Shown piece by piece: positions 18,507 to 61,470 of a stretch of 64,000 nt of DNA; position 1 is the stretch's first letter; the number at the start of each line of letters is the position of its first letter. The notes below the pieces were generated by a model. That model did no database searches. It saw only the letters and a program-made list of their open reading frames with translations, and was not told where the DNA came from. The stretch is from positions 14,382,097 to 14,446,096 of the forward strand of contig NC_047019.1 of assembly GCF_902652985.1 (NCBI RefSeq). Direction: 5' to 3'. This DNA comes from Pecten maximus. Taxonomy: Eukaryota. A program made the translations under genes and the position numbers.

Positions 18507-20883
18507 ATGGCGAACGTGTACAACCTGTTTTCGGCTTTGATGCTGGCGATCCTTCTGATGCCACAGACTGTTTCGGCCGCTACTGAAGAGTATGTAAGTT
18601 TTTACAGTAAAATGGCCAGAATATACGCAAAATATGTCAGTTCATGTAATTATGTGAACGCGAAGTGAGGTTATTAATCTTAAGGAAATAATTCAAAGAT
18701 GCCACATCTTTGACAAAAAAATAATTATGAGATTCATGCAGTGCCAAAAGCTATATAAGCTGTATAATATATTCATACCGTCCTCCAAAATTTCAATTTT
18801 TTTCCTTATTTTGTATTATTTCATTTATTGCATCCTCAAAATATGGTAGATTGTGTTCCGCTTCTATATTTGGTATATGCATCATCGCTTTCGTTCGTCT
18901 AAGCGATCACTTTTTTATTCCTTCATTTCTTATGTTCTTTTCCTTTTATTCATTTCTATGCCATTGGTGATATTTTACGCATTTTTGTCACGGGCAGTGT
19001 GCAGGCTGTCAAACGCTGAATATTTGTTAATTGTTATGTATTTGGTACAGCTGTCACAATGATAAAGATATGGGAAACATGGTGATGCAAAATGGATATT
19101 GATCAGCTGCAATGCATCATCAAAAGCAGTTTAAGCTTTTTGTTGTTGTTTTTATTCGTAAAATGATTTTCATTTACTTCAATCCAAAATGATAACATAA
19201 ACATAAGCATATGTCTAAAAAGTGATATCATTTTACAGTCCTTTACAAGTGGATTATCCAAGTGTCATTGTCCACGCTAAAGACAATGGAAACTTCACTA
19301 TGATGGTAAGCAAGGTTCTAACATACAGTGTGTTTTAAAACTCAGCTCTATCTGTAAAATGAATTCCCATGCTATTCATGCATCTGTTTCTGATTTGAAT
19401 ATACTTTTGTAATGCATTATTATACACTAGTATTTTCAATGGATCAGTTCTAACTTCTCACTACATTACAATGGTAAGCAATAAAAGAAAATTTAATCCA
19501 TTCCATTTGTGTTTTGAATAACATATTTATGTATCGTCATGCAGGAATTTTTCATTCAACATTTTGTTATTCTTAAACATTTATAAAGTCATAGTATCCC
19601 TATTTTATTCGTATTCATGCTTATTCCATCCCGCTTGTTTTTGTCTGTTTAAGTCTGGAATCAATGGCGACATAAAACTGTTGCCCGGCGTCAACAACTC
19701 CGGAAAGGTGTACTTTGAGGGAGAGGATTTACTTTATCTCATCGAAGTAAGACCTTACAAAAATGTGATATATTATATTATGTAGCAATAATTTGAATTA
19801 CATTTCCATGGTAATTAGGGTGAATAGTTCATTTTTTGTAATGGACTCTATGCTCGCTCTCATTCTCTCTTTCTCCCATTCACCAATATCTATCCATTTT
19901 CTATGCAGGTCATACTGAGCCAGCCCCCTGTATGGTCAGAATATTCACCGTTCGGACACCTCGGAGATTTCCATGGAGGCGAGAGGGTGTACGTCCAATT
20001 GGAAGCACTGGTACATGTATTTCCTAACTCATGATATTTCATTATTTTATTAATATTTACTTACGTCCATGGTCAATGTATGTCATAATTCAATCTTCCC
20101 AAATACGAATCACAAATTATGAACCATTATCTCAAGGTTTTTTATTTGGGAGGCTGTGGTATGTTTGTGTTAAGTCTCCTTGTGATAGGCCGGATCTTTT
20201 GCCGATTTAGAGTGCTACCTCACTGAAGCATACTGCCGAAGACACCCAGCATCACACCCCACCCGGTCACATTATACTGACAACGGGCGAACCAGTCGTC
20301 CCACTCCTAATTTGCTAAGAGCTAAGCAGGAGCAGCAACTACCATTTTTAAAGACTCTGGTATGTCTCGGCCAGGGGACAGAACCCAAAGCCTTCCTCAC
20401 AGGGGCGAACGCTCAACTAAAGGCCAAAAGTGAGGGAGTGTCAAGGGAGACATTAGGAAGAAGAAAGTTGTTAAGAAAGAAGAGAAAAGATAAGATCCCA
20501 AGTTGAGTCGCCTCTTACGATCATGCAATGGGGGCAGCAGGTACAATTCTTACGCCCTACCTGCAGGGCCACCTCCCAAATACGTATCACAAATTATGAA
20601 CCATTTTCTCAAGGTTGGTAAGAGTATACGAAGATGGAGTTTGATGTAGACAACACGCAGTCAACAGTTTACATGTAATGCTTCATATTGTTATTTCATC
20701 GCTACAAACGACAAGTAAATGTTCATTAATATGTCATGATAACAAGAATACCAAGAAATCGACAAGTCTATTCGTCCATGATGCATTCACTTCCACCTAC
20801 AAAATAATCAACGATATGTGAGTCACATGTAACCATAGAAACCCTTTATTCAGTTCCTAGGTACTCGATAAAAATGACAAGAG

Positions 20884-34187: not shown

Positions 34188-36751
34188 CTACCACAGACAG
34201 AAAGAAATTATTGAGTTACCCACCACATCAAACTTGTTGCCAAGTAAAAGTATGGGGAATGTTCCCTTGTCAACCGGAGTTTCTTCCATGGTGGTCGTGT
34301 GGACCTGGCCTGCCTTATCCTCTACTGGACGTGTCAAGAAGGTGTTGTTTAGGACAGTTTGGCGCCACACAGGTGCCATCTCTATACTGGTCTGCTCGGT
34401 CATATCAACTACGACTGTAACACAGGAGAATTTAGACATTAATTTCCCCAGTCTTGATTTCATTCTTGAACAAAGATATAGATGAAATGATTTGGTATAA
34501 ATTAATGAAAATAATGTATCATAGTTACTACTATAACCTATAATATATTCACAATTACATTCCCTAACTTTGTGAACTTTCTTTTAAAACTGATTTTTTT
34601 TGTGAAATTCATTTTTTTAATTATATTTTCCATGTCTTTAAAGTCAAGTTGGGGTTATATTACCAAAGCTTTGTGATGTTTCTACAATTAGTTTTACCAG
34701 AGATCTATCTCTGGTTTTACATTATGCACAAACTGATATACAGGTATAAACATACACAAATGTCTGCCAATGATATAGTGTTACACTATCTGTTGTGATA
34801 GACTGATATATACTCCCTAAATGACTGACCTAATAATGTCTGTCAATGCATCAGATAGAGTAATAGACTCGAATTATACTCCCTAACTGACTGACCTATA
34901 GCAGCATCAAGGTTCCTGAAGTAAGATTTATGGAGATCTATGTCCTCTCGTCCTGGAATATCCCACAAGGTCAAGGACACAACAGTGTGACCCGGAACAT
35001 TCAACTTCCGAACAGTGCTCTCTGGAATTTTTACACATAAACCATAATTATTTCTAAAACTCACAAAATCTGGTGTCTAAATATGAAATCATATCTAGCA
35101 TTGTCTAAGATTTAACTTCAAAAGAACATAAAATGAGGACCTTTTGATAGACATTAAATATTCCATGCACACAATGAACAACCAAAGGATAATAACAGAA
35201 CAACAAACCATGTACAATATTGATTTAACAATAATGAATAGACAAACATAAATGTACATAATGTTGTTTTCCAATTTGGGTTGAATATACCATAGACAGA
35301 TAGATTACAATAAATGTACATATTTTACTGGTAATCTTGTTCTAGCATTTTTTTTATTCTGGAAGCATTCCACTGAATTATGACTATGCTAATTGCAGTT
35401 GGTTTCTATGGCAATCATTGGCGTGTAATTCATTCTTCCACTAATCTGTTTTAATTTGGTTTATTAAATTAAGTACATGTTCATTATGCTTGAGCTTGTG
35501 ACATACCAATCTCATTATAGATCTAAATTGTTACAATATTGAGAAATAATTACGAGAAAGCCCAAAGATTAAGTCTCAGCGGTTGGGAAGGACAGAGCCA
35601 TATTGATACTGGTATATATAGTCACATAAAGATTAGCAATAGCCCATAGACATTTAAAAGTCTACTTTAGACAAAAAGTAAAATTGGCCCCGAGGAATTT
35701 TTAAAACGGTGGTAAATGGCCCATACCTAGGATCAGCCTTCCATCCCAATCCCTGAAATCTAAAATATTTCTTGATATTTTGATTTTCAAATCTTTAAAT
35801 AGATAGTAGATTCGAGTTACAACTGAACATTCAGAATTTTGAAAGGCATTTGCTGTAATTTTACACAAACAGCACAATTATCAGATCTGCTATATATACT
35901 AACATTGATCAAATGTTTAAAATTTCTTGCATGGTAATGCCATTTTAACTGTATATGTTACATTTTAACTGTAAACTCCAAAAATATTCTACGTACCTAT
36001 GACTGCTTTCTTGGTGGGAATATACATTGGACTGAACTGATTCTTCAGAAACCTTAGTGCCACACATGTTTTACCTACTTCAGGATCACCTGGCCAAAAC
36101 AACAAAAAAGTTTACATGACATCAATTCAGAGATCTTCACTAGTCGAGGCTTCTGATTATGTTACACTCCACAAGTTTGTGGAGTAAACTTGTGGAGTGT
36201 AACATAATCAGGAGCCTTGGCTAGCAAAGATGCAGTTCAGGGTAAGAGACTGTATATGCAATATACATGTCCTCTATTTGTAATTTAAGCTGTAAAACTA
36301 CATACTGAAGTGGCAAAAACAAAACTCATTAATATTCATAAGCACACAGTTTTATCTGAGGTTAGAACGATTCTAATAAGAATCAAATAAATAGGGAAAA
36401 CATTGTTTGGTTCCAGTGATAATTTCTATGATTATAAATACCATTAAAATAAGTCGTGAATAAATACAATGTCTACCATAACACTTAAGAGGTTGAATGA
36501 TTTGAAACATTCTTGATACATTATGACTGACAGAAAGGTGAAGTTTTTATGGTATCTACAATGTACTGCATATTGTGGCAGTCAATTGGATAAAGTTTGT
36601 CAGGAATGAATGCTTTACTGGTTATCATGTCCACAAAAAATAGTTTTCAGTATAAAATAAACAGTGCAAGAAAATGTGATTCCCCTATAAAACAACCTGT
36701 GTATCTTACCTACTAAAGCAATCTTCAGTGGAGGGACATGGTGTCCTGTGC
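34188..36751 (-). CDS. Rab-like small GTPase, IFT27/RABL4-like (partial model; initiator exon and exact 3' end unresolved)
   Basis: Minus-strand exons: 36710-36751 (..HHVPPLKIALV), 35997-36089 (GDPEVGKTCVALRFLKNQFSPMYIPTKKAVI; the P-loop form GDPxVGKT is characteristic of IFT27), 34896-35021 (ESTVRKLNVPGHTVVSLTLWDIPGREDIDLHKSYFRNLDAAI; switch II reads WDIPGRE instead of the usual WDTAGQE), 34188-34414 (VVVDMTEQTSIEMAPVWRQTV..PILLLGNKFDV..). The order of G1-G3-G4 motifs is canonical for Ras-superfamily proteins. Confidence 0.5.
36155..36222. repeat. Perfect inverted repeat 2 x 31 bp, in intron of the IFT27-like gene
   Basis: CTGATTATGTTACACTCCACAAGTTTGTGGAG|TAAACTTGTGGAGTGTAACATAATCAG. The flanks GTCGAGGCTTC and GAGCCTTGGCTAGC are also partly complementary and resemble the 25704-25744 inverted repeat (CTTCGCTAGCCAAGG..CCTTGGCTAGCGAAG). 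Confidence 0.7.
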
Positions 36752-37645: not shown

Positions 37646-37812
37646 GGCATGGAAATGTAACTCGACAAACCCGTAACTAAACCAGGGCATGGAAATGTAA
37701 CTCGACAAACCCATAACTAAACCAGGGCATTGAAATGTAACTCGACAAACCCATAACTAAACCAGGGCATGGAAATTCTACAAACCCATAACTAAACCAG
37801 GGCATGGAAATG
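37646..37812. repeat. Minisatellite, period about 40 bp, about 4 copies
   Basis: GGCATGGAAATGTAACTCGACAAACCC(G/A)TAACTAAACCAG repeated four times, with the last copy deleted to GGCATGGAAATTCTACAAACCC. Confidence 0.7.
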
Positions 37813-38449
37813 TAAAAGACAATTGTATAAGAATATATCTAATTGAGGTTTTGACAGTGTTTCAGTTCCGTTGCATCTTCTTCAATGAAAAATATCCCAA
37901 TTTCCAAATCATTTTTTTTTATATTCGGACCACAAGAATACGTAATAATTAATATAAAATTACTCCGTATTTAATGTGAAAGTCACCGTGGCATACGGGG
38001 GCATTTTTACATTGTACTTCACGAATCTGTCCGTCAAAAACTCTTCGATGCAAAAGGAAAACGGACTGCATAATGTCACATATCGTAGCATGACAATCGA
38101 TAAATCATAATCAAATCGTAATTTTGATAAATTAGAAAATAACCTGAATAGGCGAATGGGTTATCTGAATCCGAACTGCAACCTGCTCCCATTGTGTTAT
38201 GCCTTATGTGATTCAGAAATCATTGGAATACTAGATTTATTGCAGTTCGTCAGCCATGTTGTTGACATTGTAGCTAGGTGTTCTTGCGTAGGACGTCATC
38301 ACATTATGTGTAATATTAACCTCATTACTATTGTCGTTATCATCTTCAAAGCAGTAAGTAACAACATTAACTATAGGCGTGAATTGTTAGAGTTACAATA
38401 TTCAAGGCGAGTCAACAGGACAATTTCTATAGAGCACTTGGTATGAGCT

Positions 38450-38521
38450 GGTTCTGTGGTGTAGTGGTTATCACGTCTGCTTTACACGCAGAAGGTCGCG
38501 AGTTCGAACCTCGCCAGAACC
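38450..38521 (+). tRNA. tRNA-Val (anticodon TAC)
   Basis: 72 nt: GGTTCTGTGGTGTAGTGGTTATCACGTCTGCTTTACACGCAGAAGGTCGCGAGTTCGAACCTCGCCAGAACC. Cloverleaf is foldable, box A TGGTGTAGTGG, box B GGTTCGAACC, anticodon loop TTTACAC, followed by a T5 Pol III terminator. Confidence 0.9.
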
Positions 38522-39172
38522 TCTCAATATTTTTCTTGCATCTGGGTAATAATATCTTTTCCATCGACGTATTTTTTTTTGTCTCTGAAAATAATGTATT
38601 TTTAGTAAAGGCAAACATATTAATATATTTTAAAGTTACAAATCAAAGGCACATGAGCTTACAGTCTGAGTTTTGAAAAAAAAAAAAATCATTGGTCTAA
38701 ACGTATTCTATTTGTCAAAACACTAATGGGATTACTATATGATACTTATAATCCGTCTTTTCCCTTGTAACAAATGATTCATAGGGGTCGGTATTAGCTT
38801 GAACGTTTTTAGCCATTTTGTTCCTAATGAAGAGGTGGTCGGTTTTGAGAAGAGCCAGTTTTGGGGAGACGTACTGTACGTTGTATGAAGCTATACGAGC
38901 ATGGCTACACGTAGTCCCTCAAAACCATATTAAATGGATACATACAGATGTATACTGTCTTTATTGTCAACTGTTTAATCGGAAAACATATAACCTTGTA
39001 TTGTACATGTAGCCATAGCTTAATTAGGAACTTGTTGAACATTCAGTAATAACACTTTCAATCTATACATGAAGGTCTGTCTAGCAAGTTTTTAAGTGGC
39101 ATATACTACATACATTAGTTATTATGGGAAATTCGATTATGTACAGTACTAACTACACGTAGCTGATATCAA

Positions 39173-39244
39173 GGTTCCGTGGTGTAGTGGTTATCACGTC
39201 TGCTTAACACGCAGAAGGTCACGAGTTCGAAACTCGTCGGAACC
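39173..39244 (+). tRNA. tRNA-Val (anticodon AAC)
   Basis: 72 nt: GGTTCCGTGGTGTAGTGGTTATCACGTCTGCTTAACACGCAGAAGGTCACGAGTTCGAAACTCGTCGGAACC. Anticodon loop TTAACAC, A and B boxes present, downstream T6 tract. Confidence 0.9.
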
Positions 39245-39427
39245 TGGTGACAGTATTTTTTATTTCATTTTATAAAATAGAAATATATGTTTAATTTTAG
39301 TACAACAGACAGTGATTTTCATTAGAATGTTAAATGAAGACATAATTATTGCGTACATTTCTTACATTTATACTATATTCGCTAATCTAGTGAGCATGTT
39401 CAGATTTTGAGGCATGTTGATCATATC

Positions 39428-39499
39428 GGTTTCGTGGTGTAGTGGTTATCACGTCTGCTTCACACGCAGAAGGTCGCGAGTTCGAACCTCGCCGAAACC
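39428..39499 (+). tRNA. tRNA-Val (anticodon CAC)
   Basis: 72 nt: GGTTTCGTGGTGTAGTGGTTATCACGTCTGCTTCACACGCAGAAGGTCGCGAGTTCGAACCTCGCCGAAACC. Anticodon loop TTCACAC, downstream T5. Confidence 0.9.
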
Positions 39500-39825
39500 T
39501 AGATATTATTTTTACATGTACATAATTTTTATCAACCTTAATTTTTGGTCAACGGTTTGATACTTTCGAGTCAGAACACCTTCGTTGTCAATATTTAGAT
39601 TCCCTCATTAGTCGTCACTCATTTACCGCCATGATGGCGTTATTTGTGTAGTATATATAACGGAAAGTCAAGTGATTGTTCCGATCCAGTCGGCTTTAAA
39701 AACGTCAAGACGTTATCTTACTATTATTAATCATATCACGCGAATCTAAGTGTAGTTACCGAATATGACCGTGATAATTGTTTGAATGATTTTCTGCTCA
39801 ACAAGCGAAATGTATTTAAATGTAT

Positions 39826-39902
39826 CGGTCCGTTGTTATCTTATCTGCCTTACACGAACAAGATGGTGAGTTCAAGGTTCTCAAGTTCGAGCTTCCAGAA
39901 CC
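39826..39902 (+). pseudogene. Degenerate tRNA-Val(TAC)-like relic
   Basis: ..CCGTTGTTATCTTATCTGCCTTACACGAACAAGATGGTGAGTTCAAGGTTCTCAAGTTCGAGCTTCCAGAACCTCT aligns to the 3' two-thirds of the 38450 tRNA and to its 3' flank (CCAGAACCTCT..TATTTT), but the stems are broken. Confidence 0.4.
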
Positions 39903-40565
39903 TCTGTATATTTTGTATCTAAACTGATACTACACATACGGAATCAATCGGATAACCTCGGGCCTTTCCGGCAAGCTAGGAAAAACACGGAATACGTCTG
40001 TTTAGGCATATTGATAGATTTTTATAGACAATGTGATAGATATAAGTGGAATGGAATAAGAGTTTATAAGTTCAATATCTTTTTATTTTTATTTTGATTG
40101 ACGTGTTTTTGTTTGAAAATAATTAATTTTAGTAAAGACAAACTCAACATATTTTCATACATTGTATTACAAAACAAAAACATATACGAACCAACGAATT
40201 TGTCTATATCTACATACATATTCCAGGCCCAGAATCAGTATTCGGAATTCAGAGGGGTCGGTATTGACTTGAACGTTTTTTAGCCATTTTTTTCTTAATG
40301 AAGAGGTGATCGGTTTTGAGAAGGGTATATATTAAATGATGCTATATGAGTGTGGCTTACAATGGATACATTTTCGGAAATCATATTTTATAACTTTGTA
40401 TTGTACATATAACCATAGATTAGGAACTTGTTGAACCTTCAGTAAAAACACTTTCAACCTATACACAAAGGTGTAGCAATTTTTATTATTGGCAGCTGCA
40501 GCTACTACATGTATTATGTGCAATCACATATACAGTAATCGATTATGTACTAGCGTGATTATCGA

Positions 40566-40637
40566 GGTTCCGTGGTGTAGTGGTTATCACGTCTGCTTAA
40601 CACGCAGAAGGTCACGAGTTCGAAACTCGTCGGAACC
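40566..40637 (+). tRNA. tRNA-Val (anticodon AAC)
   Basis: Identical 72-nt sequence to the copy at 39173-39244. Downstream T5. Confidence 0.9.
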
Positions 40638-40741
40638 TAGTGATATTATTATTTTTATTTTATTTTATGAAATAGACATATGTATAAGTGTAGTATGATG
40701 GATATTGATTTTCATTAGAATGTTTAATTAAGACATATTTT

Positions 40742-40761
40742 GTTCGAAACTCGTCGGAACC
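40742..40761 (+). pseudogene. 3' fragment of tRNA-Val(AAC) (solo 3' half)
   Basis: GTTCGAAACTCGTCGGAACC followed by the same 3' flank (TGGT..ACTTTTTATTTTATGAAA) as full copies. This is a partial duplication inside the tRNA repeat unit. Confidence 0.5.
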
Positions 40762-40947
40762 TGGTGGTATACTTTTTATTTTATGAAAAAAATAAGGATT
40801 TTCTTATTTAATTGTACTATGGTGGATATTTATTTTCATTAAAATGTTAAATGAAGACATATTTATTGGGTATATTTCTTATATTGATACTATATTTCGC
40901 TAATCTAGTTTTAGCGTTTAGATTTTGAGACACCTCATTCTCATATC

Positions 40948-41019
40948 GGTTTCGTGGTGTAGTGGTTATCACGTCTGCTTCACACGCAGAAGGTCGCGAG
41001 TTCGAACCTCGCCGAAACC
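40948..41019 (+). tRNA. tRNA-Val (anticodon CAC)
   Basis: Identical to the copy at 39428-39499. The preceding leader (CGCTAATCTAGT..TCATATCG) and the downstream T6 tract (CTGATTTTTTACA) are conserved between the two Val-CAC copies. Confidence 0.9.
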
Positions 41020-42548
41020 TACTGATTTTTTACATTTACATATCAACCTTAATTTTTAGTCAGCACTTTTAGTCCACAGGCATGTTCATACTTTTCTGAA
41101 ACGGCATCACAATATTTCTGATACTTAGGAATCTTTACAAAAGTTTTATTAACTGAAAGAACACTTCGTTGTCAATATTTATATTGTGTCGTCACTTGTC
41201 CGTGGTCGCTTTATTATCGTAGTATATATAGGGCGAGTTCACCAGGCAACGGACACATACCATGGGTCGGACAGTTTTGCTCGAATATTAAACATACACT
41301 GAAGCGTTTTACCGTGTTGAGTTTTCATTATACAGAAAGTATCTGAATCAAACGCTGCGATGATACTGACAGGTCATGTGTCGTTGTAGCCAGCCAAATT
41401 ACGAACCAACGATTGCCGGTTTTTCTACGTCAGGTCAGTGCATTTTGAATTTAGTTGTATTTTACAGTGTGATGGTTATATCCCTTATATTAAGTAATGT
41501 GAATTAGCGACTGGCAATCGATTTATTTTAGTTTGGTTTGTTTTATTTTGTTTAACGTCTTAAGGGTCATCTATATAGCAGAATAGTGTTGAATTTCAAA
41601 CACGAATAAATACCTTAAGATTTGCACAAAAAATGTCATATAATATACCAAAACGTTTGTTTGGACATGTAGCTTCTTACAATCACCAATAATATGCTAT
41701 AGATGCTACCAGTTTCTTTTGTAGAGTAACTTTGTGGTAAGATTTGGCATGAAATAATTCTAAGTCACGCAAATGATCAACCCTGAAAAATAGCCATGCT
41801 GTTATGTTCATAAGTGTCTATAGCACAGGGTAGGAGCATTTGTTTGACTGGATTTTACTGTATGTACGTATAAACACTTTATACACAATATTACACAAAT
41901 ATGGCTTAAAGGAGGCATTTCAGTTAATAACAAAACTCCTATATCGTACTTTTAAGACATCTCATCATAGTAACATGAACATTTGAATGTCAATTTGTTA
42001 AAATGGTGAGTTTGCAGCCTTTTTCAGAAATACGCATATTTTACCCCAAACTCAACGGTTGAACATTTTTTCATAAAAGCAGTCTTCTTGCCACTTCAAG
42101 AATACTTTATATTGTCTAATAAGAGCATTTTTGATGTTTTAAATACCTCCTTATATGCCATATTTGTGTGATATCGTTCACGACCGCCATTTGCAATTCA
42201 AGGTCAAATTAAAAACAGCGTTTATACATATAATAACGTCAAAGCTGGTCAAACCAATGCTCCTATTTTGTGCTTTAGACACTTGTGAGCAAAACGACAT
42301 GGCAAGTTTGTGTAATATATGGGATACAAATGAGTTAATTATGTCCCCCTGAAACATGCATTTTTCTTACGTTTTGTTGAAATTTACAAACAGCTTCACA
42401 AATTACATGTCAACAGCAAGACCCAGGGTTTGCCATGATACATACTAAAAGTTCATCATGTTACTTCTGTGACATTACACCATAATAGGGACTTATAGGC
42501 CTGTAAAATATCAATGTTTTGACTGGATTTGCTGTTTAGATGCCCCTT

Positions 42549-42767
42549 AACATCTAAGGTCATTTAAGGACGGCCTCCCGTGCGTGCGATATGCATGCCT
42601 GTGGTGAGTGCGTATGTGTGTTTTGGGAGGCTGCGGGTATGTTCGTCTTAAGTCTCCTTGTGATAGGCCGGAACTTTTGCCGATTTATAGTGCTACCTCA
42701 CTGAAGCATACTACCGAGGACACCAAGCAGGACACCCCACCCGGTCACATTATACTGACAACGGGCG
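42549..42767 (+). mobile_element. Retroposon family copy 2a (3'-truncated), directly abutting copy 2b
   Basis: Head ..CATCTAAGGTCATTTAAGGACGGCCTCCCGTGCGTGCGATATGCATGCC.. through ..ACTGACAACGGGCGA. Confidence 0.65.
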
Positions 42768-43300
42768 ATTTGGTTTGGTTTATTTTGTTTAACGTCCTAT
42801 TAACATCTAAGGTCATTTAATGACGGCCTCCCGTGAGTGCGACATGCATGCGTGCGGTGAGTGCGTATGTGTGTTTTGGGAGTCTGCGGTATGTTCGTAT
42901 TAAGTCTCCTTGTGATAGGCCGGAACTTTTGCCGATTTATAGTGCTACCTCACTGAAGCATACTGCTGAAGACACCAAGCAGGACACCCCACCCGGTCAC
43001 ATTATACTGACAACGGGCGAACCAGTCGTCCCACTCCTTGTATGCTGAGCGCTAAGCAGGAAGCAGCAACTACCATTTTTAAAGACTCTGGTATGTCTCG
43101 GTCAGGGGACAGAACCCAAAGCCTTCCTGACAGCGGCGAACACTCAACTAAAGGCCAAAAGTGAGGCAGTGTCAAGGGAGACATTAGGAAGAAGAAAGTT
43201 GTTAAGAAAGAACAGAAAAGATAAGATCCCAAATTTAGTCGCCTCTTACGATCATGCAATGGGGGCAGCAGGTACAATTCTTACGCCCTACCTGCAGGGC
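42768..43300 (+). mobile_element. Retroposon family copy 2b (near full length)
   Basis: Starts TTTGGTTTGGTTTATTTTGTTTAACGTCCTATTAACATCTAAGGTCATTTAATGACGGCCTCCCGTG and ends ..TTCTTACGCCCTACCTGCAGGGC. Confidence 0.7.
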
Positions 43301-44545: not shown

Positions 44546-44945
44546 GGAAGGCTTTGGGTTCTGGATTGGTTTCGTTTGGTTTTATTTGTTTAACGTCCTA
44601 TTAACAGCTAAGGTCATTAAAGGACGACCTCCCGTGTTGGTGATATACATGCGTGTTTGTGAGTACGTATGTGTGCCTTTGGAGGATGCGGTATGTACGT
44701 GTTATGTCTCCCTGTGATCGGCCGGATCTTTTGCCGATTTATAGTGCTATATCAATGAAGCATACTGCCGCAGACACCAAGCAGGACACACCACCCGGTC
44801 AGATTATGCTGACAACGGCCATGGAACAGAACCCAAAGTCTTCCTCACAGGGGCGAAGGGAGACAGTAGGAAGAAGAAAGTTGTTCAGAAAGAAGAGAAA
44901 AGATAAGCTCCCAAATTTAGTTGCCTCTTACGATATCATGCAGGG
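44546..44945 (+). mobile_element. Retroposon family copy 4 (internal deletion)
   Basis: Head TTGGTTTCGTTTGGTTTTATTTGTTTAACGTCCTATTAACAGCTAAGGTCATTAAAGGACGACCTCCCGTG.., central segment missing, tail ..AAATTTAGTTGCCTCTTACGATATCATGCAGGG. Confidence 0.65.
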
Positions 44946-48246: not shown

Positions 48247-49504
48247 TCACAGGGATGATCGCAGGTTTTTCTTGAAATCTGCTGACCATTCCCTGAAAGC
48301 ATCAAGGAAATCCTTGTTTAGCATCACAACGTGTTTGCTCAAAGGAGCAACTGTGATTTCTTTGCCATAACTTACCATAAAATAATATAACACTGGCGAC
48401 AAAATTTCTATAGTTAACTTTCCCTTCTCGTCTAAACTTGCTTTAAAGTCTAAAAATCCATTGAAGTCTTCAACTGATAACAAGACAAATTCCCCCCACC
48501 CTGTCATCACCTTTTCAAAGGTTTTTCCTTGATTTTCCACAGTGTCAATAAAGTATATAACACAGGGACACCTTATATGCACCGGAGTTATTCCAGCAGA
48601 TACCCTCTCAAGATCCCCAGCAAAAGCTGGACCATATTTATCGCTCAAATCCTCTAGAACTTCTTCTAGAAAATATTTTTCTACCTCTTCCATTGTGATT
48701 GGTTTCGAAGGTACCTCTGTGGCGAAGGTGGCCGATAAAGGAGGTACATGTAGTTTGCACAACAAGATCAACATGGGTTGCTACAACTGAGGTAGTTGGC
48801 ACAGCAGGATCAACATGGGTTGCTACAACTGAGGTAGTTGGTACAGCAGGATCAACAGGGGTTGCTACAACTGAGGTAGTTGGTACAGCAGGATCAACAA
48901 GGGTTGCTACAACTGAGGTAGTTGGTACAGCAGGATCAACAAGGGTTGCTACAACTGAGGTAGTTGGTACAGCAGGATCAACATGGGTTGCTACAGCTGA
49001 GGTAGTTGGTACAGCAGGATCAACAAGGGTTGCTACAGCTGAGGTAGCTGGCACAGCAGGATCAACATGGGTTGCTACAGCTGAGGTAGTTGGTACAGCT
49101 GAGGTAGCTGGTACAGCAGGATCAACATGGGTTGCTACAATGGAGGTAGCTGGCTGAGCGACTTCAACTGATCTCCTTTGTTTTAGTCCGAGATATAATC
49201 TTGTTGCCCCAACATATTTTTTGTATTCCCTCACATAACAGGCGATAGTGAAATTTTCTTTATCAATAATTTCCTTATTATTGATGTCATCTAAAACTGC
49301 CTCATAATTTCCCTTGCCAAATTCTACTTGCAATTCCATTAACACTTGGTCATAGTCATAGTTATTTGGAAATGTCTTCTTGATAGCAGATGCTAATGGA
49401 TATAGTGTTGATCTATAAATCTGGACAAAACTTTCTTTCCTCTCCTCTTTTACTCCGCATGTTACTAAGTAAGTAGCCTTTAGTTCATTGGGTTTCTGAA
49501 ACAT
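48247..49504 (-). CDS. Hypothetical protein gene with an internal 42-bp (14-aa, PAVPTTSVVATHVD-like) tandem coding repeat and a frame discontinuity between repeat and C-terminal domain
   Basis: Minus-strand ORF 48638-49504 gives MFQKPNELKATYLVTCGVKEERKESFVQIYRSTLYPLASAIKKTFPNNYDYDQVLMELQVEFGKGNYEAVLDDINNKEIIDKENFTIACYVREYKKYVGATRLYLGLKQRR.. followed by about 9 repeats. Minus-strand ORF 48247-48774, in another frame, encodes a globular-looking C-terminal part (..TEVPSKPITMEEVEKYFLEEVLEDLSDKYGPAFAGDLERVSAGITPVHIRCPCVIYFIDTVENQGKTFEKVMTGWGEF..DFLDAFREWSADFKKNLRSSL). An in-frame TAG lies immediately upstream of the Met at 48774, so the two parts cannot be joined without a frameshift. Confidence 0.5.
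48760..49145. repeat. 42-bp coding tandem repeat, about 9 copies
   Basis: GGATCAACA(T/A)GGGTTGCTACAACTGAGGTAGTTGG(C/T)ACAGCA repeated. Minus-strand translation gives PAVPTTSVVATHVD. Confidence 0.75.
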
Positions 49505-51382: not shown

Positions 51383-51810
51383 AAATATGAACTATGTCTC
51401 CTTTGACAATGCCTCACTTTTGGCCTTTAGTTGAGCGTTCGCCCCTGTGAGGAAGGCTTTGGGTTCTGTCCCCTGGCCGAGACATACCAGAGTCTTTAAA
51501 AATGGTAGTTGCTACTCCTGCTTAGCGCTCAGCATAAAAGGAGTGGGACGACTGGTTCGCCCGTTGTCAGTATAATGTGACCGGGTGGGGTGTGCCGCTG
51601 GGTGTCTTCGGCAGTATGCTCCAGTGAGGTAGCACTATAAATCGGCAAAAGTTCCGGCCTATCACAAGGAGACTTAACACGAACATACCGCAGCCTCCCA
51701 AAACACACATACGCACTCATCACACACATGCATGTTGCACGCACGGAAGACCGTCCTTAAATGACCTTAGCTGTTGATAGGACGTTTAACAAAGAAACAA
51801 ATCAAACCAG
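51383..51810 (-). mobile_element. Retroposon family copy 5 (minus orientation, lacks the 3' quarter)
   Basis: Reverse complement matches the family from the head to ..GACAATGCCTCAC, with an (AAACC)-like end at 51780-51810. Confidence 0.65.
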
Positions 51811-53464: not shown

Positions 53465-53535
53465 CAACATGTCCTATGCATCCTTAAATGACCTTCGCTG
53501 TTAATAGGACGTTAAACAAAATAAACCAACCAACC
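53465..53535 (-). mobile_element. Retroposon family head fragment (minus orientation)
   Basis: CATCCTTAAATGACCTTCGCTGTTAATAGGACGTTAAACAAAATAAACCAACCAACCAACC. Confidence 0.5.
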
Positions 53536-53788
53536 AACCTATGCATCCATCCTTCACACAAATCACACCCTATCCATAAGCTATTCTCCTCAGGACCACC
53601 TTGACCACACACATTACAAATATCATGCTCTCCACAATCATCACTTTCATCATCAAAAACCACCTCTCCATCATCTGAATCTGACTGTCATAGCTACTTT
53701 CTCCTTTCTGCCTTTTCTTTTCTCACTAGCTTTCTTTTGCTTCTCATCCTCTCTTTTTCTTTTATTCTCTTCTCTTTCAGCTTGTTTT

Positions 53789-55110
53789 TCACCTTTTCAA
53801 CCTCTCTTTCCTTTTTCTTTCTCTTTCTATCTTTCTCTGCTCTTTTCCCCTTGCCTCCTGCTCTTTTTTCTCCTGTTTTGTTTTTAGTATTTCAAACATT
53901 TCATCACCACTAAGGCCTTTTAGAAGTGCACGTTTGCTACTCTTTGTTTTATGCTTTATCTTCACAGATGGCAGCTTTAAGAAAGTATCAAATGGGTCAT
54001 TGGGGACTTTGGCAGAAGCTGTTGCAGGTGTGAAAGCAGGAACAGGGACAAAGGCTAGAGCAGGGACTGGTACCGCAGCAAGAACGGGTCCCTGATTAGG
54101 GATTGTTACTGCAACAGGAACAGATGCCACAGCAGGGACGGGCGCCAAAGCAGGAACTGGTGTCACAGCAGGAACGGGTGCCAAAGCAGGGACGGGTGTC
54201 ACAGCAGGGACGGGTGCCAAAGCAGGGACGGGTGTCACATCAGGGACGGGTGCCACAGCAGGGACGGGTGTCACAACAGGGACGGGTGCCACAGCAGGAA
54301 CGGGTGCCTCCTGAGGGACGGGTCTCTGAATAGGGACGGGTGCTGCAGTAGGGACAGGTCCCAGAGAAGGGATTGGTATCACAGCAGAGACGGATCCCTG
54401 AGTAGGGACAGGCGCCGGACCAGGGATATTTGCCGAAGCAGGGAGGGGTGCCGCAGCAGGGACAGGTCCCTGGATAGGGACGGGTGCCAGAGTTGGGACA
54501 GTGCTAGTTTGTTGAGAGACAGTGCTAGATGGTAATGAAGCCGTCGCGTCCCCTGATGCATTGACATCTTGAGTCGTGTGGGCAAACAGGTTCCCTGGAG
54601 CCAGTTTACTGCTATTGGCCACCTTTGCTGCATCCAACGGGAAGAGTCCGCTTTCCAGAAATCCCTGGACGGCATTCCGCACATTCGCTGACTTGAGCCA
54701 AGCCTGCTTAAAAACTGACGCAAATGTCACCTTTGTGACACTCTCACCTAAGAGCTCCATTTGAAAGTTCCTCACAGCTTAAGTCCAGTTCGACTTCAGG
54801 GCACTGAACAGACAAAGATCCAATGGCTGCATAACATGACTGGCGTGTTCCAGGAGGCAATACAGAATGATCGGGTTAAATCTGCAAAACTCACTCGTTT
54901 GAGGATTCACATGGGTGCTGTGACCATCAACAACGAGCAAAACTGGACGTTTCACCTGCCTTTGAGTAAGCGTGTTATGGAAAGTGGTCGAAAGCCAAAC
55001 ATAGAACAGCTCATTGTCCGTTCAACCATTCTCTGTCCGACCCATGACAGCCTCTGTGAAACCCTCAGGTGGGTTATAATTGAACCGGCAACCTGGATAC
55101 ACAATTAATG
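53789..55110 (-). pseudogene. pogo/Tigger-like DDE_1 transposase pseudogene with a Pro/Val-rich tandem-repeat C-terminal tail
   Basis: Minus-strand translation of 54790-55000 gives ..NELFYVWLSTTFHNTLTQRQVKRPVLLVVDGHSTHVNPQTSEFCRFNPIILYCLLEHASHVMQPLDLCLFSALKS, the classic DDE_1 signature (DGHSTH ... CLP.H.SH..QPLD). Two in-frame stops are present: TGA in ..TENG*TDNELF (likely TGG mutated to TGA) and TAA before MRNFQMELLGESVTKVTFASVFKQAWLKSANVRNAVQGFLESGLFPLD. The tail 54100-54330 is a 36-bp repeat encoding (PVPAVAPVPxxT)n and ends in the basic stretch KRKERLKR. Confidence 0.6.
54100..54335. repeat. 36-bp coding tandem repeat (Pro/Val/Ala-rich) within the pogo-like pseudogene tail
   Basis: GGGACGGGTG(C/T)CA(A/C)AGCAGGGACGGGTGTCACAGCA repeated about 6 times. 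Minus-strand translation gives PVPA(V/L)APVPAVTPV. Confidence 0.7.
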
Positions 55111-55177: not shown

Positions 55178-55425
55178 TCATTGTCAGTATAATGTGACTG
55201 GGTGAGGTGTGCTGCTGGATGTCTTCGGAAGTATACTTCAGTGAGGTAGCACTATAAATCGGCAAAAGCCTATCACTAGGAGACTTAACACGAACATACC
55301 GCAGCCTCCCAAAACACACATACGCACTCACCACACGCATGCATGTCGCACGCACGGAGGCCGTCCTTAAATGACCTTAGCTGTTTATAGGACTTTAAAC
55401 AAAATAAACCAAACCAAACAAAACA
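55178..55425 (-). mobile_element. Retroposon family copy 7 (5' half, minus orientation), adjacent to the pogo-like pseudogene
   Basis: ..CAGTATAATGTGACTGGGTGAGGTGTGCTGCTGGATGTCTTCGGAAGTATACTTCAGTGAGGTAGCACTATAAATCGGCAAAAG..GGCCGTCCTTAAATGACCTTAGCTGTTTATAGGACTTTAAACAAAATAAACCAAACCAAAC. Confidence 0.65.
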
Positions 55426-55830
55426 ACTTTTAACTTTATAAACTTTACAAACAAGGCCATATTATAGCATTGATGCAATAACTTTCATATATAAAAAACA
55501 ATCTTTAACTTTAACAAACAGAGGATTTACACATCTTTTGCAGACTGCTCAAAAATACTATACACTAATTAAGGCTGGCAAGGCACAACAGTGTGAAAAT
55601 AAATATCCTATCAAGTGCTACCAAATAGACACTTTTTCGACTCTGTTACAGTACCCTATCCTCTCTCTGTGCCTTCTTAATCTCTTTTCTTTTCAACCAT
55701 ATATCCTGCTTGTGAGATATATTTACTCCACCCTTCCCCCACATTGCATCTAGTTATCATTCTTATATTTTTTCTTGTGCAATCACATATAACTACTCGA
55801 GAATCGAGAGTACTGATCTGTTAGTATCGA

Positions 55831-55902
55831 GGTTCCGTGGTGTAGTGGTTATCACGTCTGCTTAACACGCAGAAGGTCACGAGTTCGAAACTCGTCGGAA
55901 CC
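55831..55902 (+). tRNA. tRNA-Val (anticodon AAC)
   Basis: Identical 72-nt sequence to the copies at 39173 and 40566. Downstream T5. The flanks are homologous to those of the 39-41 kb repeat unit. Confidence 0.9.
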
Positions 55903-56088
55903 TGTTGGAATACTTTTTATTTTATTTTATGAAATAAAATATGTATGTAATAAAAAAAAAAACTTATTTTAGTATGACGGATATTTATTTTCATTAAAAT
56001 GTTAAATGAAGACATTTATTGCGTATATTTCTTATAATGATACTATATTTCGCTAATCTAGTGACAACTCATATCTCAGGCTCATATC

Positions 56089-56160
56089 GGTTTCGTGGTG
56101 TAGTGGTTATCACGTCTGCTTCACACGCAGAAGGTCGCGAGTTCGAACCTCGCCGAAACC
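56089..56160 (+). tRNA. tRNA-Val (anticodon CAC)
   Basis: Identical to the copies at 39428 and 40948. Conserved leader and trailer, T5 terminator. Confidence 0.9.
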
Positions 56161-56770
56161 TACTTATTTTTAACATATCAACCTTAATTTTTGATCAGCA
56201 CATTTAGTCCACAGACATGTTCGTACCTTTTTGACACTGCATCACAATATCTCTGATACTTACCAGACTTAACAAAAGTTTTATTAATTCAAAGAACTCT
56301 TCGTTGTCAATATTTATATTATATCGTCACTCGTTTACCGCCATGCTCGCTTTATTAGTGTAGGATATATAAATAGACAGTTTTCGGCTTATATCCCTTA
56401 CCTAGGTAGTTATATCGTGCGACTCATTTTGATTATAACGATGAATTATTGATCAATATATAAACAGATATACAAAAGAACTCAACATAATTTTGTAGCA
56501 AACAATATATGTGGTGGATACAAATTTCTGTTACATGTACCTGGAAAGAAGAGTGGCACAGATTACAGATTTATGTCATGAGGGTTCGACACTTTCCTAT
56601 GACCCAGAATAAAAAAAAAATATCCCGAGGCACGACTCCTTATAAGTGATCTAGGTCGTACCGTCGGATCATGTTTCATTATAGGTATTAGGAAAGTGAC
56701 AAGACTATTATTATGTCAAATCGGATTACTTGTATAATAATAAAGATAAACCGTTTCGCGAGTGTGCAGA

Positions 56771-56839
56771 GGTTTCGTGTTGTAGTGGTTATCACGTCTG
56801 CTTCACACGTAGGTCCCGAGTTCGAAACTCGTCGGAACC
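56771..56839 (+). pseudogene. Chimeric or deleted tRNA-Val pseudogene
   Basis: GGTTTCGTGTTGTAGTGGTTATCACGTCTGCTTCACACGTAGGTCCCGAGTTCGAAACTCGTCGGAACC is 69 nt. The 5' half is CAC-type, the 3' half is AAC-type (GAAACTCGTCGGAACC), and 3 nt are deleted in the anticodon or variable region (CACGTAGGTCCCGAG versus CACGCAGAAGGTCGCGAG). Confidence 0.5.
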
Positions 56840-56924
56840 TGAATATAACTTTTATCTATTTCATGAAATAAAGATAACATCCCCTTCCCGATTAATAATA
56901 TAAGTGAAATGGAATAAGATAATG

Positions 56925-57130
56925 ATTTGGTTTGGGTTTATTTGTTTAACATCCTATTAACATCTAAGGTCATTTAAGACCTTAGATGTTAATAGGACGT
57001 TAAACAAAATAAACCAAACCAAACCAAACATTTAAGAACGGCCTCCCGTGCGTGCGACATGCATGCATGTGTTGAGCGCTACCTCACTGAAGCATAGTGC
57101 CGAAGACACCCAGCAGCACACCCGACCTGG
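56925..57130. mobile_element. Retroposon family copy 8 with a palindromic (inverted-duplicated) head
   Basis: TTGTTTAACATCCTATTAACATCTAAGGTCATTTAAG|ACCTTAGATGTTAATAGGACGTTAAACAA is a perfect inverted repeat centred near 56970, followed by AAATAAACCAAACCAAACCAAAC and then the family body (..GGCCTCCCGTGCGTGCGACATGCATGC..CTCACTGAAGCATAGTGCCGAAGACACCCAGCAGCACACCCGACCTGGTCACATTA). Confidence 0.55.
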
Positions 57131-59001
57131 TCACATTACAGGTCGACTCGATCGCTATATAAGGACATAAACATAGATTTACGTCACGGGCCTGTTATCC
57201 ATAATGCAATGCGAGGTTCAGCCAATCGTCTAAATGAAATGTGATCACATGATCTCTTTTACTACACAGTTACTAAGCATCAGTCACCTGTTCCATTCAT
57301 TAGATAATGATTTGTCAATAATGTTGCAAAAAGTGCAGTGGGTAAAAGAATATGGCTTATCAACCGGTAAAAATTGTCGAAATGTTAACTATATACATAA
57401 ATTCAATATTCTACCTTTGGAATTTGTTACTTAGATGTTAACAAAGACACACAAATTGGTATCCAAATTCAGTCAATTTACAATGTATTCAGGAAAAATC
57501 GGGAATTGTTTGTTCATTTACTAGTTCCCGAACACTGGTCAAAAATTGCAGTAATATTTTTTTGCTAGCTGTTTTAACTTTCTCAACTTTCATTCTTGTC
57601 ACCCATTCATCTTTTACACTTTCAGGCATCACTCTCACATTCTCATCAATCATCGCAATCAATTTCTGTATCATTCTCAGTTACGTGGAATTTTCTTACT
57701 TTATTTAAGGAATATTTTTTATTTGTTCAAAAGACCAATTGTTTAACGCTTTTAAACGTTGTGAGTTGTTGACACATTTCAATTTTACTATCAATCGACT
57801 TAATTTTTCTATTAGAAACGCCTAAAGGCCCATTGCATATCAAATTATTGAACGAGTTTAATAAATTCCATATGAAATAGCCACTCATGTAAGATTCTCT
57901 CTATATATAATACATGTACATACTAGGTTATCTATTGTAATTGAGGGCTTCTCGGATAGGATTCCCTAACTTCAAAATGTTATGTCACTTTAATTTATAC
58001 ACGGCCAATTTCTAGTTGGAACTCCGGTATTAATTGTAAAACTGCTAAATTCTCGTGATATGTGTGTTACGCGTGTTTGCACGATACACTCATTGATTGA
58101 CACGTGTCCTAGTACAAAAAATACATGTATGTGAATAAATTATTGATAACGATTTCGGTGCTTATTTTCTCAGTCTTTTATAAAAACGTGAAATTCCAAA
58201 GGTGAAGTTGTTTATAATCTTGTAAACTTTACTGATTTCCATACGAATGGACGCTTGTCTATATGTAACGGAACCAGCCTAGTCAAGTACAGCTAAAGAT
58301 AATTATATGATTCAAACATATTTTATTGTCAAAACGTACAAAGGGATTGGGCACAAGTTTTTGCAACTGACCAACGCCCTTTCCCAAAACAAATACAAAA
58401 TTACAATATTTGACAAAATAAAGACTTAAGGTCACCAATTCAATATTTTTGTAATATCTTTGTTACATTGCTCTCCGATTTGTCAAAAGGCAGGAAGTAC
58501 AGAACAAACAAATATCATGCATTTTAAAATCTATTACTTGTTTTTATAAACTTGTGCACATTTCTGAATATGATTAAAGAGGCTTGCCCGCAGAGAGATC
58601 AGAAAAATTGGCTAATAGAAAAAGATTTTTTTTACATATGACAGATTGTTGGAATTGTTGAGTTTTTTATTTTATTTTCCTTATAAAACGCTGAAAAGTG
58701 ATATTAAAACCTCATTTTTTAAATATTATTTATTTAATCGCAACCCGCAATAAGTCCCCGCTATAAAGTGGAGTCTAATTTGATTGACACATCAAAGAAA
58801 CAAGCACGTGCACAGTGCCGCACAGTGATAACTTCAAAGGCAGCGGCGATTTACAAAGAAGATTTGCCGTTACATTCCATACATTTCCCTCTCAGGTTGA
58901 GTTTTAAAACGTCTTTTAAATACATATTCTGTAATTGTTTTCAAGAAATAAAGTCGGAAAGCCTCTAATTTTGTCACATAGAAACGTGTACTGAAGTTTA
59001 T

Positions 59002-60942: not shown

Positions 60943-61470
60943 TTGGTTTGGTTTGGTTTATTTTGTTTAACGTCCTATTAACAGCCAAGGTCATTTAAGG
61001 ACGGCGTCCCGTGCGTGCGACATGCATGCGTGTGGTGAGTGCGTATGTGTGTTTTGGGAGGCTGCCGTATGTTCGTGTTAAGTCTCCTTGTGATAGGCCG
61101 AAACTTTTGCCGATTTATAGTGCTACCTCACTGAAGCATACTGCCGAAGACACCCAGCAGGACACCCCACCCGGTCACATTATACTGACAACGGGCGAAC
61201 CAGTCGTCCCACTCCAAATATGCTGAGCGCTAAGCAGGAGTAGCAACTACCATTTTTAAAGACTCTGGTATGTCTCGGCCAGGGGACAGAACCCAAAACC
61301 TTCCTCACAGCGGCGAACGCTCAACTAAAGGCCAAAAGTGAGGCATTGTCAAGGGAGACATTAGGAAGAAGAAAGTTGTTAAGAAAGAAGAGAAAAGATA
61401 AGATCCCAAGTTTAGTCGCCTCTTACGATCATGCAATGGGGGCAGCAGGTACAATTCTTACGCCCTACCT
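60943..61470 (+). mobile_element. Retroposon family copy 10 (full length) inserted into the Crypton-like element, with 10-bp TSD CCGAAGAAGA
   Basis: Target-site duplication CCGAAGAAGA at 60933-60942 and 61471-61480. Element runs from (TTGGT)n TTTATTTTGTTTAACGTCC.. to ..TTCTTACGCCCTACCT. Confidence 0.8.

Follow-up and report, generated by a model that had tools for sequence, protein, structure and literature searches.

A cluster of tRNA-Val genes in composite three-isoacceptor units, probably old tandem duplicates evolving by birth and death

The 64-kb stretch of Pecten maximus DNA analysed here, which we call the window, was originally predicted to carry an array of tRNA-Val genes in which each composite repeat unit holds all three isoacceptors. 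This raises two questions: whether these are genuine genes in a real composite arrangement, and whether the identity of their copies reflects continuous homogenisation of the array. The prediction was open to being overturned by a tRNA finder run on the window, and it came through, since both ARAGORN and the Rfam model RF00005 call tRNA-Val. They recognise seven + strand genes, of which three have the anticodon AAC, three CAC and one TAC; the Rfam scores range from 64.3 to 69.4 bits, the gathering score being 29, and neither program found any tRNA beyond these seven in the 64-kb window. The calls and the alignment of the units bear out the array with three isoacceptors per composite unit, as well as the recurrence of the AAC-CAC pair at 40566/40948 and 55831/56089, both pairs being called. 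Each gene measures 73 nt, not 72 nt as first given, and copies sharing an anticodon are 100% identical by alignment, as had been anticipated. The TAC gene at 38450-38522 is the sole intact TAC copy within the window. Chance falls far short of explaining seven co-oriented Val genes with homologous spacers inside 18 kb.

The cloverleaf was examined by covariation over 15 Val tRNAs (those of the window plus four other sources). In this set 94.6% of cells are paired, eight pairs show changes on both sides, and the observed score was reached by 0 of 500 shuffles; compensatory changes at pairs 5:68, 6:67 and 49:65 separate the three isoacceptors of the window. In all seven genes the A-box region (positions 8-18) reads TGGTGTAGTGG and the B-box region (positions 52-62) reads AGTTCGAA(A/C)CT, the consensus sequences for comparison being TRGCNNAGTGG and GGTTCGANNCC, respectively. 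A T5-T6 run lies 6-14 nt 3' of every gene (7/7). Cloverleaf, covariance model match, A and B boxes and T-run terminator are those of a nuclear tRNA gene (Pol III type 2), and the cluster consists of ordinary intact nuclear tRNA-Val genes in an arrangement that is real and of a kind already well known. Each gene would form an independent Pol III unit, with its own internal A/B-box promoter and its own T-run terminator, and the seven would jointly supply the three anticodons that read GUN codons (cytoplasmic tRNA-Val). The loci are presumably transcribed, the activity of every copy being judged from sequence alone.

Table 1. Units, genes and associated features of the tRNA-Val cluster (positions are those of the window)
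Feature	Position	Strand	Evidence
Composite unit 1: TAC, ~650-nt spacer, AAC, 182-nt spacer, CAC, ~325-nt tail	38450-39825	+	MAFFT; self-BLAST
tRNA-Val(TAC), unit 1	38450-38522	+	ARAGORN; Rfam 69.4 bits; T5 run at +8
Conserved 77-nt upstream block, copy 1	38777-38852	+	91% identical to 40247-40323
tRNA-Val(AAC), unit 1	39173-39245	+	ARAGORN; Rfam 64.3 bits; T6 run at +11
tRNA-Val(CAC), unit 1	39428-39500	+	ARAGORN; Rfam 67 bits; T5 run at +9
Composite unit 2: TAC relic, AAC, internal 123-nt duplication, CAC, tail	39826-41235	+	self-BLAST; MAFFT
Decayed tRNA-Val(TAC) pseudogene (relic)	39826-39902	+	66% over 83 columns to TAC gene
Conserved 77-nt upstream block, copy 2	40247-40323	+	self-BLAST
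tRNA-Val(AAC), unit 2	40566-40638	+	ARAGORN; Rfam; T run
123-nt tandem duplicate of 40618-40740	40742-40864	+	self-BLAST
tRNA-Val(CAC), unit 2	40948-41020	+	ARAGORN; Rfam; T run
Unit 3: AAC, 185-nt spacer, CAC, ~215-nt tail	55776-56376	+	self-BLAST; MAFFT; nhmmer models
tRNA-Val(AAC), unit 3	55831-55903	+	ARAGORN; Rfam; T run
tRNA-Val(CAC), unit 3	56089-56161	+	ARAGORN; Rfam; T run
Partial unit 4: AAC-type upstream flank, hybrid pseudogene, AAC-type trailer	56708-56921	+	alignment
Hybrid AAC/CAC tRNA-Val pseudogene	56771-56840	+	alignment; Rfam 29.4 bits (intact genes 64-69)

As shown in Table 1, the genes fall into units. The composite unit TAC-AAC-CAC is about 1.4 kb long and units 1 and 2 abut head to tail, so that multi-gene units, homologous spacers and a constant order TAC-AAC-CAC make this a composite array. 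Because unit 2 carries a TAC relic, the ancestral unit can be taken to have been TAC-AAC-CAC. Unit 3 has neither the TAC part nor the upstream block, and partial unit 4, which also contains 22 nt matching the spacer of unit 2, is truncated by an interspersed repeat. Within the window there are thus two adjacent units and about 1.5 more lying 14.5 kb off, not an uninterrupted array of many units. In unit 1 the CAC gene had been placed about 185 bp after the AAC gene; the gap measures 182 nt there, 309 nt in unit 2 and 185 nt in unit 3. An nhmmer search with models built from spacer, tail and upstream sequences found nothing outside the units on either strand of the 64 kb.

Between-unit spacer identity is 76-82% and gene mismatches are zero; at the divergence rate of the spacers, a 73-nt gene would stay free of mismatches with a probability of about 1e-7. 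Pairwise comparisons give 80% over 370 columns (38989-39347 versus 40389-40740), 81.7% (39225-39551 versus 40742-41062) and 81.7% over 509 columns (40742-41230 versus 55883-56371), and the spacers of units 1 and 2, nearest neighbours, are no closer to each other than those lying 15 kb apart. The flanks are 18-24% diverged up to a leader motif of 7-8 nt and the trailer, identity otherwise ending at the gene borders, the pattern that purifying selection acting on a tRNA would leave. Conservation of flanks and terminators, as originally predicted, is seen in the T runs of all seven genes and in the homology of the flanks, but these are just 76-82% identical. The upstream motif that had been quoted is present in both units 1 and 2 (91% over 77 nt) and is absent from the unit at 55.8 kb. 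This 77-nt block is conserved above the surrounding spacer (P about 0.008), and a search for a predicted structure or for further copies of it found neither.

The units also contain remains of genes. The predicted Val-TAC relic is present; its T arm carries a 13-nt insertion and its substitutions are numerous. It retains the TTACAC loop and a TAC-type 3' end and trailer (CCAGAACCTCT...TATTTT), and receives no call from ARAGORN or Rfam. The solo 3' half of Val-AAC, first placed at 40742-40761, was located at 40742-40762, inside a 123-nt tandem duplication. These 21 nt are 100% identical to AAC positions 53-73, and comprise the B-box half, the acceptor 3' strand and the discriminator; behind them comes a trailer of the AAC type that contains a T5 run. 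The duplicate is 14-31% diverged, yet its first 21 nt are perfect. As a side possibility, this solo B-box half is a candidate for a gene-less TFIIIC-binding site. A chimeric by-product, for which no coordinates had been given, could be placed at 56771-56840. Its positions 5 and 34 agree with the CAC type and its positions 60, 65 and 68 with the AAC type; positions 10 and 49 show unique changes, and a 3-nt deletion breaks the anticodon stem. CAC states at 2 of 6 diagnostic sites have a probability of about 0.007 by chance, in a single case and a dead gene. Its flanks are AAC-type on both sides, which rules out a simple product of a CAC x AAC crossover. No degenerate tRNA-Val pieces were found in the window beyond the relic, the solo part and the hybrid.

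Clusters of Val-AAC, CAC and TAC genes with relics were also found in four metagenome sources, on contigs picked with an AAC 42-mer; their flanks are unrelated to the window and the trio spans 0.7-3 kb per source. One of them (L001) holds two AAC-TAC-CAC units whose spacer is 78% identical; the TAC and CAC genes are identical between the two and the AAC genes differ at four positions. In a second source (L007) AAC and CAC differ solely in the anticodon, and a third (L006) has the cyclic order AAC-CAC-TAC in common with the window. In these 42-mer-selected contigs, genes with different anticodons within a source differ at a mean of 2.8 positions, versus 5.7 for genes with the same anticodon between sources. 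Shared synthetase or modification-enzyme constraints could give this pattern too.

We propose, with a probability of roughly 0.85, that the cluster is made of cytoplasmic tRNA-Val Pol III units that are old tandem duplicates evolving by birth and death. The ancestral TAC-AAC-CAC unit of about 1.4 kb would have duplicated head to tail at least once, by unequal crossing-over or possibly replication slippage, and the 55.8-kb pair, with partial unit 4 behind it, would belong to the same family, now about 14.5 kb of repeat-rich DNA away. Since the duplication, one TAC copy and one AAC-position copy would have decayed, and a 123-nt slice beginning inside an AAC gene would have been duplicated in place. 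Because the spacers are just 76-82% identical, the duplications are taken to be old and whole units not to have been homogenised, while the intact genes would be held identical by purifying selection, a cause inferred from one genome. Short-tract gene conversion or anticodon switching between linked isoacceptors has probably been occasional, and would not be needed for the identity of the copies; the hybrid, the perfect solo part and the substitutions shared within sources may be read as suggesting it. The 14.5-kb gap could alternatively mean a dispersed segmental duplication, not insertions into one array.

The alternative that survives best, possible although we consider it unlikely, is that the copies are identical because the array is under constant homogenisation by gene conversion and unequal crossing-over. 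That tRNA families can evolve in concert is accepted (PMC4981973), and this would account for isoacceptor copies that are 100% identical, for a hybrid pseudogene, for a duplicate starting within a gene and carrying a perfect solo 3' part in otherwise diverged sequence, and for linked isoacceptors elsewhere that share source-specific substitutions, to the point of differing only at the anticodon. The spacers speak against it: at 76-82% identity, with the adjacent units 1 and 2 no closer than the others, whole units cannot have been exchanged for a long time. Nor are extended conversion tracts visible, since identity stops at the gene borders; the hybrid, with AAC flanks on both sides, hence offers no crossover junction, and the TAC relic has been left unrepaired. 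Purifying selection alone would be sufficient to explain the identical genes. Where the original prediction saw unequal crossing-over or conversion and concerted evolution, then, tandem duplication is retained, but homogenisation of units, and gene identity as its proof, are not.

A more speculative proposal, which we doubt, is that the linkage of three Val isoacceptors is a conserved, selected arrangement in a broad marine-animal group and not an accident of duplication. If it were selected, this could imply repeated conversion or anticodon switching, or joint regulation of the genes that decode valine within a single Pol III domain. The recurrence of this linkage in unrelated contigs of marine eukaryotes provides a modest lead for a comparative survey.

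That the units stem from a mobile element, whether a tRNA-derived SINE or a transposon with captured tRNA genes, and are not resident genes is very improbable. Interspersed repeats are abundant in the window, unit 3 sits 15 kb from units 1-2, and units 3-4 are bracketed by inverted copies of a repeat of about 245 nt (55181-55422 and about 56969-57138). This repeat, however, has at least eight other copies without tRNA-Val, such that at this density bracketing is expected by chance and its position at unit 3 is taken as a coincidence; no tRNA match was found in it. The genes themselves form full cloverleaves of 64-69 bits, fall into three anticodon types whose stems differ by compensatory changes, and have terminators directly behind them; the copies are all co-oriented, two units abut, and the spacer models have no other match in the 64 kb on either strand. 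SINEs derived from tRNA likewise include a tRNA-like part bearing A and B boxes, and short interspersed repeats abound in the window as well, but SINE heads are degenerate and the elements lie dispersed in both orientations, whereas the genes here are intact and co-oriented and their flanks unique to the cluster (64 kb). Within the 64 kb, spacer, tail and upstream sequences found only in the units, together with intact genes, led us to reject an origin from a SINE or other transposable element. The prediction of bona fide genes had named SINE heads or a known transposable element as what would undo it; with spacers that have no other copies in the window, it stands. Least probable of all is an assembly artefact, in which a collapsed or mis-expanded repeat yields false tandem copies: tandem repeats are prone to assembly error, but here about 20% of the spacer positions vary from unit to unit and indels are numerous, which makes the units distinct sequences.

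As probable old tandem duplicates evolving by birth and death, these units can be set beside tandem tRNA arrays with composite units and the concerted evolution of tRNA genes, both of which are already well described. Eukaryotic genomes commonly contain clusters of tRNA genes for the same amino acid, mostly parallel and accompanied by pseudogenes (Bermudez-Santana et al. 2010, PMC2888827). The window cluster resembles these homogeneous clusters in its single amino acid, parallel genes and interspersed pseudogenes, and inside units 1 to 3 its neighbours fall within the <1 kb cut-off used there; that survey, in contrast, sorts clusters according to amino acid and has no separate category for units with all anticodons (PMC2888827). 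Our literature search did not find a unit holding every Val anticodon described, and for a nuclear tRNA-Val cluster in molluscs it returned mitochondrial papers only.

A closer parallel is chromosome 1 of Arabidopsis thaliana, where 27 triplet units with three pre-tRNA genes each have been described and unequal crossing-over invoked (Kane, Freeling and Lyons 2010, PMC2886086). Both have a three-gene composite unit arranged head to tail, homologous spacers, and varying copy number and gene content. They differ in that the Arabidopsis array comprises 81 genes, with within-species concerted evolution reported (PMC2886086). The window cluster, by comparison, has two adjacent units and 1.5 distant ones, and is old and diverged, recent homogenisation not being evident. 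The Arabidopsis triplet is also said to mix two amino acids (Ser and Tyr), whereas the unit in the window consists of three isoacceptors of one.

Intergenic conversion between tRNA-Ser genes in S. pombe was reported by Amstutz et al. 1985, as cited in Velandia-Huerto et al. 2016 (PMC4981973). With tRNA concerted evolution and remolding, as treated there and in the abstract of Rogers et al. 2010 (PMC2997554), the cluster has identical paralogues in common. It also resembles isoacceptor remolding in that one pseudogene bears the anticodon of a sister isoacceptor and lineage-specific substitutions are shared within a genome; it differs in offering no more than a single candidate conversion patch, in a dead gene.

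The cluster is one more small example of a composite tRNA array shaped by duplication, decay and selection, with little import beyond annotation, and its compact natural series of intact, decayed, 3'-fragment and hybrid genes could serve the study of tRNA gene turnover, given a comparison of the species with its relatives. As to the rest of the window, the host genome is AT-rich, and a Pfam scan of eight ORFs gave a sole match, to QRICH1, below threshold. One ORF has no homologues and another matches solely metagenome sequences. The best named match of a repeat-like ORF in the window is an oyster protein, with 54% identity.

Seven tRNA genes were found in the 64-kb window by ARAGORN, all of them tRNA-Val and all on the + strand, and the Rfam tRNA model recovers the same seven at 64.3-69.4 bits (gathering score 29), in agreement with the original prediction of a tRNA-Val array. 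The borders of the repeat units were defined by self-BLAST and a three-way MAFFT alignment, which show a composite unit made of a TAC gene, about 650 nt, an AAC gene, 182 nt, a CAC gene and a tail of 210-325 nt. The AAC-CAC pair said to recur 15 kb away is indeed present, as unit 3. The first tRNA gene is preceded, at a distance of about 650 nt, by a 40-nt tandem repeat (37646-37815, 4.4 copies, 91% matches). Units 1 and 2 also share a 77-nt block (38777-38852 and 40247-40323), some 320-390 nt upstream of their AAC genes, that is 91% identical against about 80% in the sequence around it (P about 0.008); no structure is predicted for this block, and it has neither a further copy nor a counterpart in unit 3.

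Features of the tRNA-Val locus and its interspersed repeat, and Val genes on metagenome contigs
Feature	Position	Strand	Remarks	Basis
Unit 1	38450-39825			self-BLAST, MAFFT
Unit 2	39826-41235		adjoins unit 1	self-BLAST, MAFFT
Unit 3	55776-56376		AAC-CAC part only; begins 55 nt before the AAC gene	self-BLAST, MAFFT
tRNA-Val TAC	starts 38450	+		ARAGORN, Rfam tRNA model
tRNA-Val AAC	starts 39173, 40566, 55831	+		ARAGORN, Rfam tRNA model
tRNA-Val CAC	starts 39428, 40948, 56089	+		ARAGORN, Rfam tRNA model
Decayed TAC copy	39826-39902		TAC position of unit 2; 66% identical to TAC gene	
Hybrid pseudogene	56771-56840		behind unit 3; 29.4 bits	
~245-nt repeat, copies	55181-55422, 44566-44837, 51564-51809, 60943-61191, 62412-62656, 20145-20283			
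~245-nt repeat, tandem pair	42533-42761, 42769-43013			
~245-nt repeat, fragments	53481-53537, 56923-57138			
Contig L001			(AAC-TAC-CAC) x2, period ~2.6 kb, plus AAC relic	
Contig L006			AAC-CAC-TAC within 700 nt, two relics in between	
Contig L007	125-907		Ala-CGC, Val-AAC, Val-TAC, Val-CAC, Ala-TGC; one orientation, ~800 nt	
Contig L011			AAC-TAC-CAC	
Contig L012			TAC-CAC plus AAC gene truncated at contig end	
Contig L013			AAC-TAC-AAC-CAC	

In all seven intact genes the A-box region reads TGGTGTAGTGG and the B-box region AGTTCGAA(A/C)CT, and a T5-T6 run follows 6-14 nt behind the gene; their D arm, GTGTAGTGGTTATCAC, is of the animal cytoplasmic Val type. When the genes were aligned with their flanks (leader, 10 nt; trailer, about 23 nt), those that share an anticodon proved identical; the three types differ pairwise at 5-6 positions, with compensatory differences at pairs 5:68, 6:67 and 49:65, and a leader motif of 7-8 nt is specific to the gene type (TATCGA before AAC, TCATATC before CAC). 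The cloverleaf was scored on 15 distinct Val tRNAs, drawn from four other sources besides the window: 94.6% of cells are paired, eight pairs have changed on both sides, and the score is approached by none of 500 shuffles and by none of the slid registers. Position 73, the discriminator, is T in all Val tRNAs of the window (38522, 39245, 39500 and equivalents) and in those of 14 metagenome contigs from four sources (L001-L014); the textbook Val tRNAs of human, fly, yeast and E. coli have A73.

The degenerate Val-TAC relic that had been proposed was recovered: despite a 13-nt insertion in the T arm, its anticodon loop (TTACAC), its end (CCAGAACCTCT) and its trailer (TATTTT) are still in place. 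The spacers behind relic and intact TAC gene also align (38558-38654 with 40092-40185, 69%), and together these points show that all three Val isoacceptors were present in the ancestral repeat unit. The solo 3' part of Val-AAC, likewise predicted, is the start of a tandem duplicate: unit 2 contains a 123-nt duplication (40618-40740 and 40742-40864) whose start at AAC position 53 yields the copy at 40742-40762. These 21 nt are unchanged in a duplicate whose remainder is 31% diverged, ungapped (P = 4e-4); measured against the well-aligned 3' stretch, about 14% diverged by manual count, P is about 0.04. In the hybrid pseudogene, positions 5 and 34 are in the CAC state and positions 60, 65 and 68 in the AAC state; a deletion has removed 3 nt of the anticodon stem, and two substitutions are private to this copy. 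On both sides, in the upstream flank (56708-56770) and in the trailer, it aligns with the flanks of AAC genes, which identifies it as the AAC member of a fourth, partial unit, cut off by an interspersed repeat at about 56920. Of the six sites at which AAC and CAC differ, two have reached the CAC state with no more than five substitutions overall (P about 0.007); given these flanks, the likely cause is that a CAC gene converted a short patch, or that the anticodon switched and a further change arose by coincidence.

Between units the genes show no mismatch in any comparison, while identity falls to 76-82% in the AAC-CAC spacer, 55-76% in the 55 nt before AAC and 61-85% in the CAC tail; at the spacer rate, 73 unchanged positions have a chance of about 1e-7 per comparison. 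Identity ends at the gene borders, save for the leader motif, and the adjacent units 1 and 2 are no more similar to each other than either is to unit 3, 15 kb off. Judged by these alignments, the units are old duplicates with conserved genes. We put at roughly 0.85 the probability that this is a resident Pol III tRNA-Val cluster in which a TAC-AAC-CAC unit would have been duplicated in tandem long ago, followed by birth and death of copies under purifying selection on the survivors, with short conversion or anticodon switching as a possible, occasional addition.

The original prediction had ascribed the identical copies to unequal crossing-over or gene conversion, that is, to concerted evolution. 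The tandem duplication agrees with part of this, but with spacers only 76-82% identical, whole-unit homogenisation of the array is not occurring, and purifying selection on tRNA function is sufficient for the identity of the copies, which thus does not imply concerted evolution. The hybrid, the perfect solo part and a comparison across organisms nevertheless hint at some non-independent evolution. For the latter, metagenome contigs were scanned for exact matches to a 42-nt stretch of the AAC gene, which gave the 14 contigs; outside the genes their flanks do not align to the window, which places them in other organisms. More than one Val isoacceptor is present on six of them; the remaining eight belong to a single source, and each has a solitary AAC gene. 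The two units of L001 repeat the pattern of the window, with TAC and CAC genes identical in a TAC-CAC segment that is only 78% identical, and in L007 the anticodon is the sole difference between Val-AAC and Val-CAC. At positions 1-6 and 49-73, which the search pattern does not fix, genes of different anticodon from one source differ on average by 2.8 positions and genes of the same anticodon from different sources by 5.7. Such a pattern is the classical mark of isoacceptor remolding or concerted evolution, but the sample is small and was chosen by way of the AAC gene, and shared constraints may play a part. It seems unlikely that the linkage of the three Val isoacceptors is conserved in marine animals as an arrangement under selection.

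An origin of the units from a SINE or other transposable element, as the ~245-nt repeat on both sides of unit 3 might suggest, is rejected within the window, where the genes stand as bona fide, because promoter boxes, terminators and cloverleaf are intact, profile searches on both strands with the AAC-CAC spacer, CAC tail and upstream region match nothing beyond the units, and at least eight other repeat copies have no tRNA-Val attached, the repeat itself matching neither tRNA nor any other Rfam family.

Same-amino-acid tDNA clusters have been reported as common in eukaryotes, mostly in parallel orientation with pseudogenes interspersed (PMC2888827), an Arabidopsis tandem array of composite three-gene units has been explained by unequal crossing-over (PMC2886086), and isoacceptor remolding is an established concept, as is the concerted evolution of tRNA paralogues through intergenic conversion (PMC4981973). 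The locus belongs with these as one more case, small, old and in part decayed, with nothing mechanistically new; the literature searched yielded no description of a nuclear tRNA-Val triple unit in molluscs.

GC content in the window is 29-46%, which fits an invertebrate animal, as do the retrotransposon remnant and the oyster protein match described below. Identity between most ~245-nt repeat copies is 88-92%; they occur in both orientations and end in an (AAACC)n-like tail, and the element looks like a SINE or MITE. Two of its tail ends, head to head at 56923-57026, form a 104-nt palindrome (86.5% self-complementary) that weakly matches a range of unrelated microRNA models, below threshold; these matches are most likely artefactual, caused by the hairpin shape. 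A near-perfect palindromic hairpin at 36143-36221 scores 42.9 bits on Rfam mir-1 (threshold 45.6), and similarly on the other strand; the miR-1 mature sequence was not seen in it, and a repeat with the shape of a hairpin is more probable here than mir-1. On the minus strand, 48247-49504 holds two overlapping ORFs in different frames with a 42-nt minisatellite (8.3 copies) that encodes repeats of the VATHVDPAVPTTS type; a search of 5.8 billion proteins detected no homologue of the 175-aa ORF. The 328-aa ORF at 53789-54775 (minus strand) matches no Pfam family; it contains an 18-nt repeat rich in proline, valine and alanine (20 copies, 54125-54489), one end is rich in lysine and arginine, and its N-terminal part may resemble the end of pogo/Tigger-type transposases. 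At 61657-62145 (+), a 162-aa ORF with a weak QRICH1-domain match (17 bits, below threshold), homologues carrying PF12012 and PF25561, and a best named match in the oyster Saccostrea cucullata (54% identity) is probably a repeat-borne gene fragment. Two adjacent ORFs at 59002-59947 (minus strand) resemble the C-terminal part of ORF2 from a non-LTR retrotransposon; a homologue on a metagenome contig (P0023, 81% identity) sits directly downstream of an RVT_1 reverse-transcriptase ORF.
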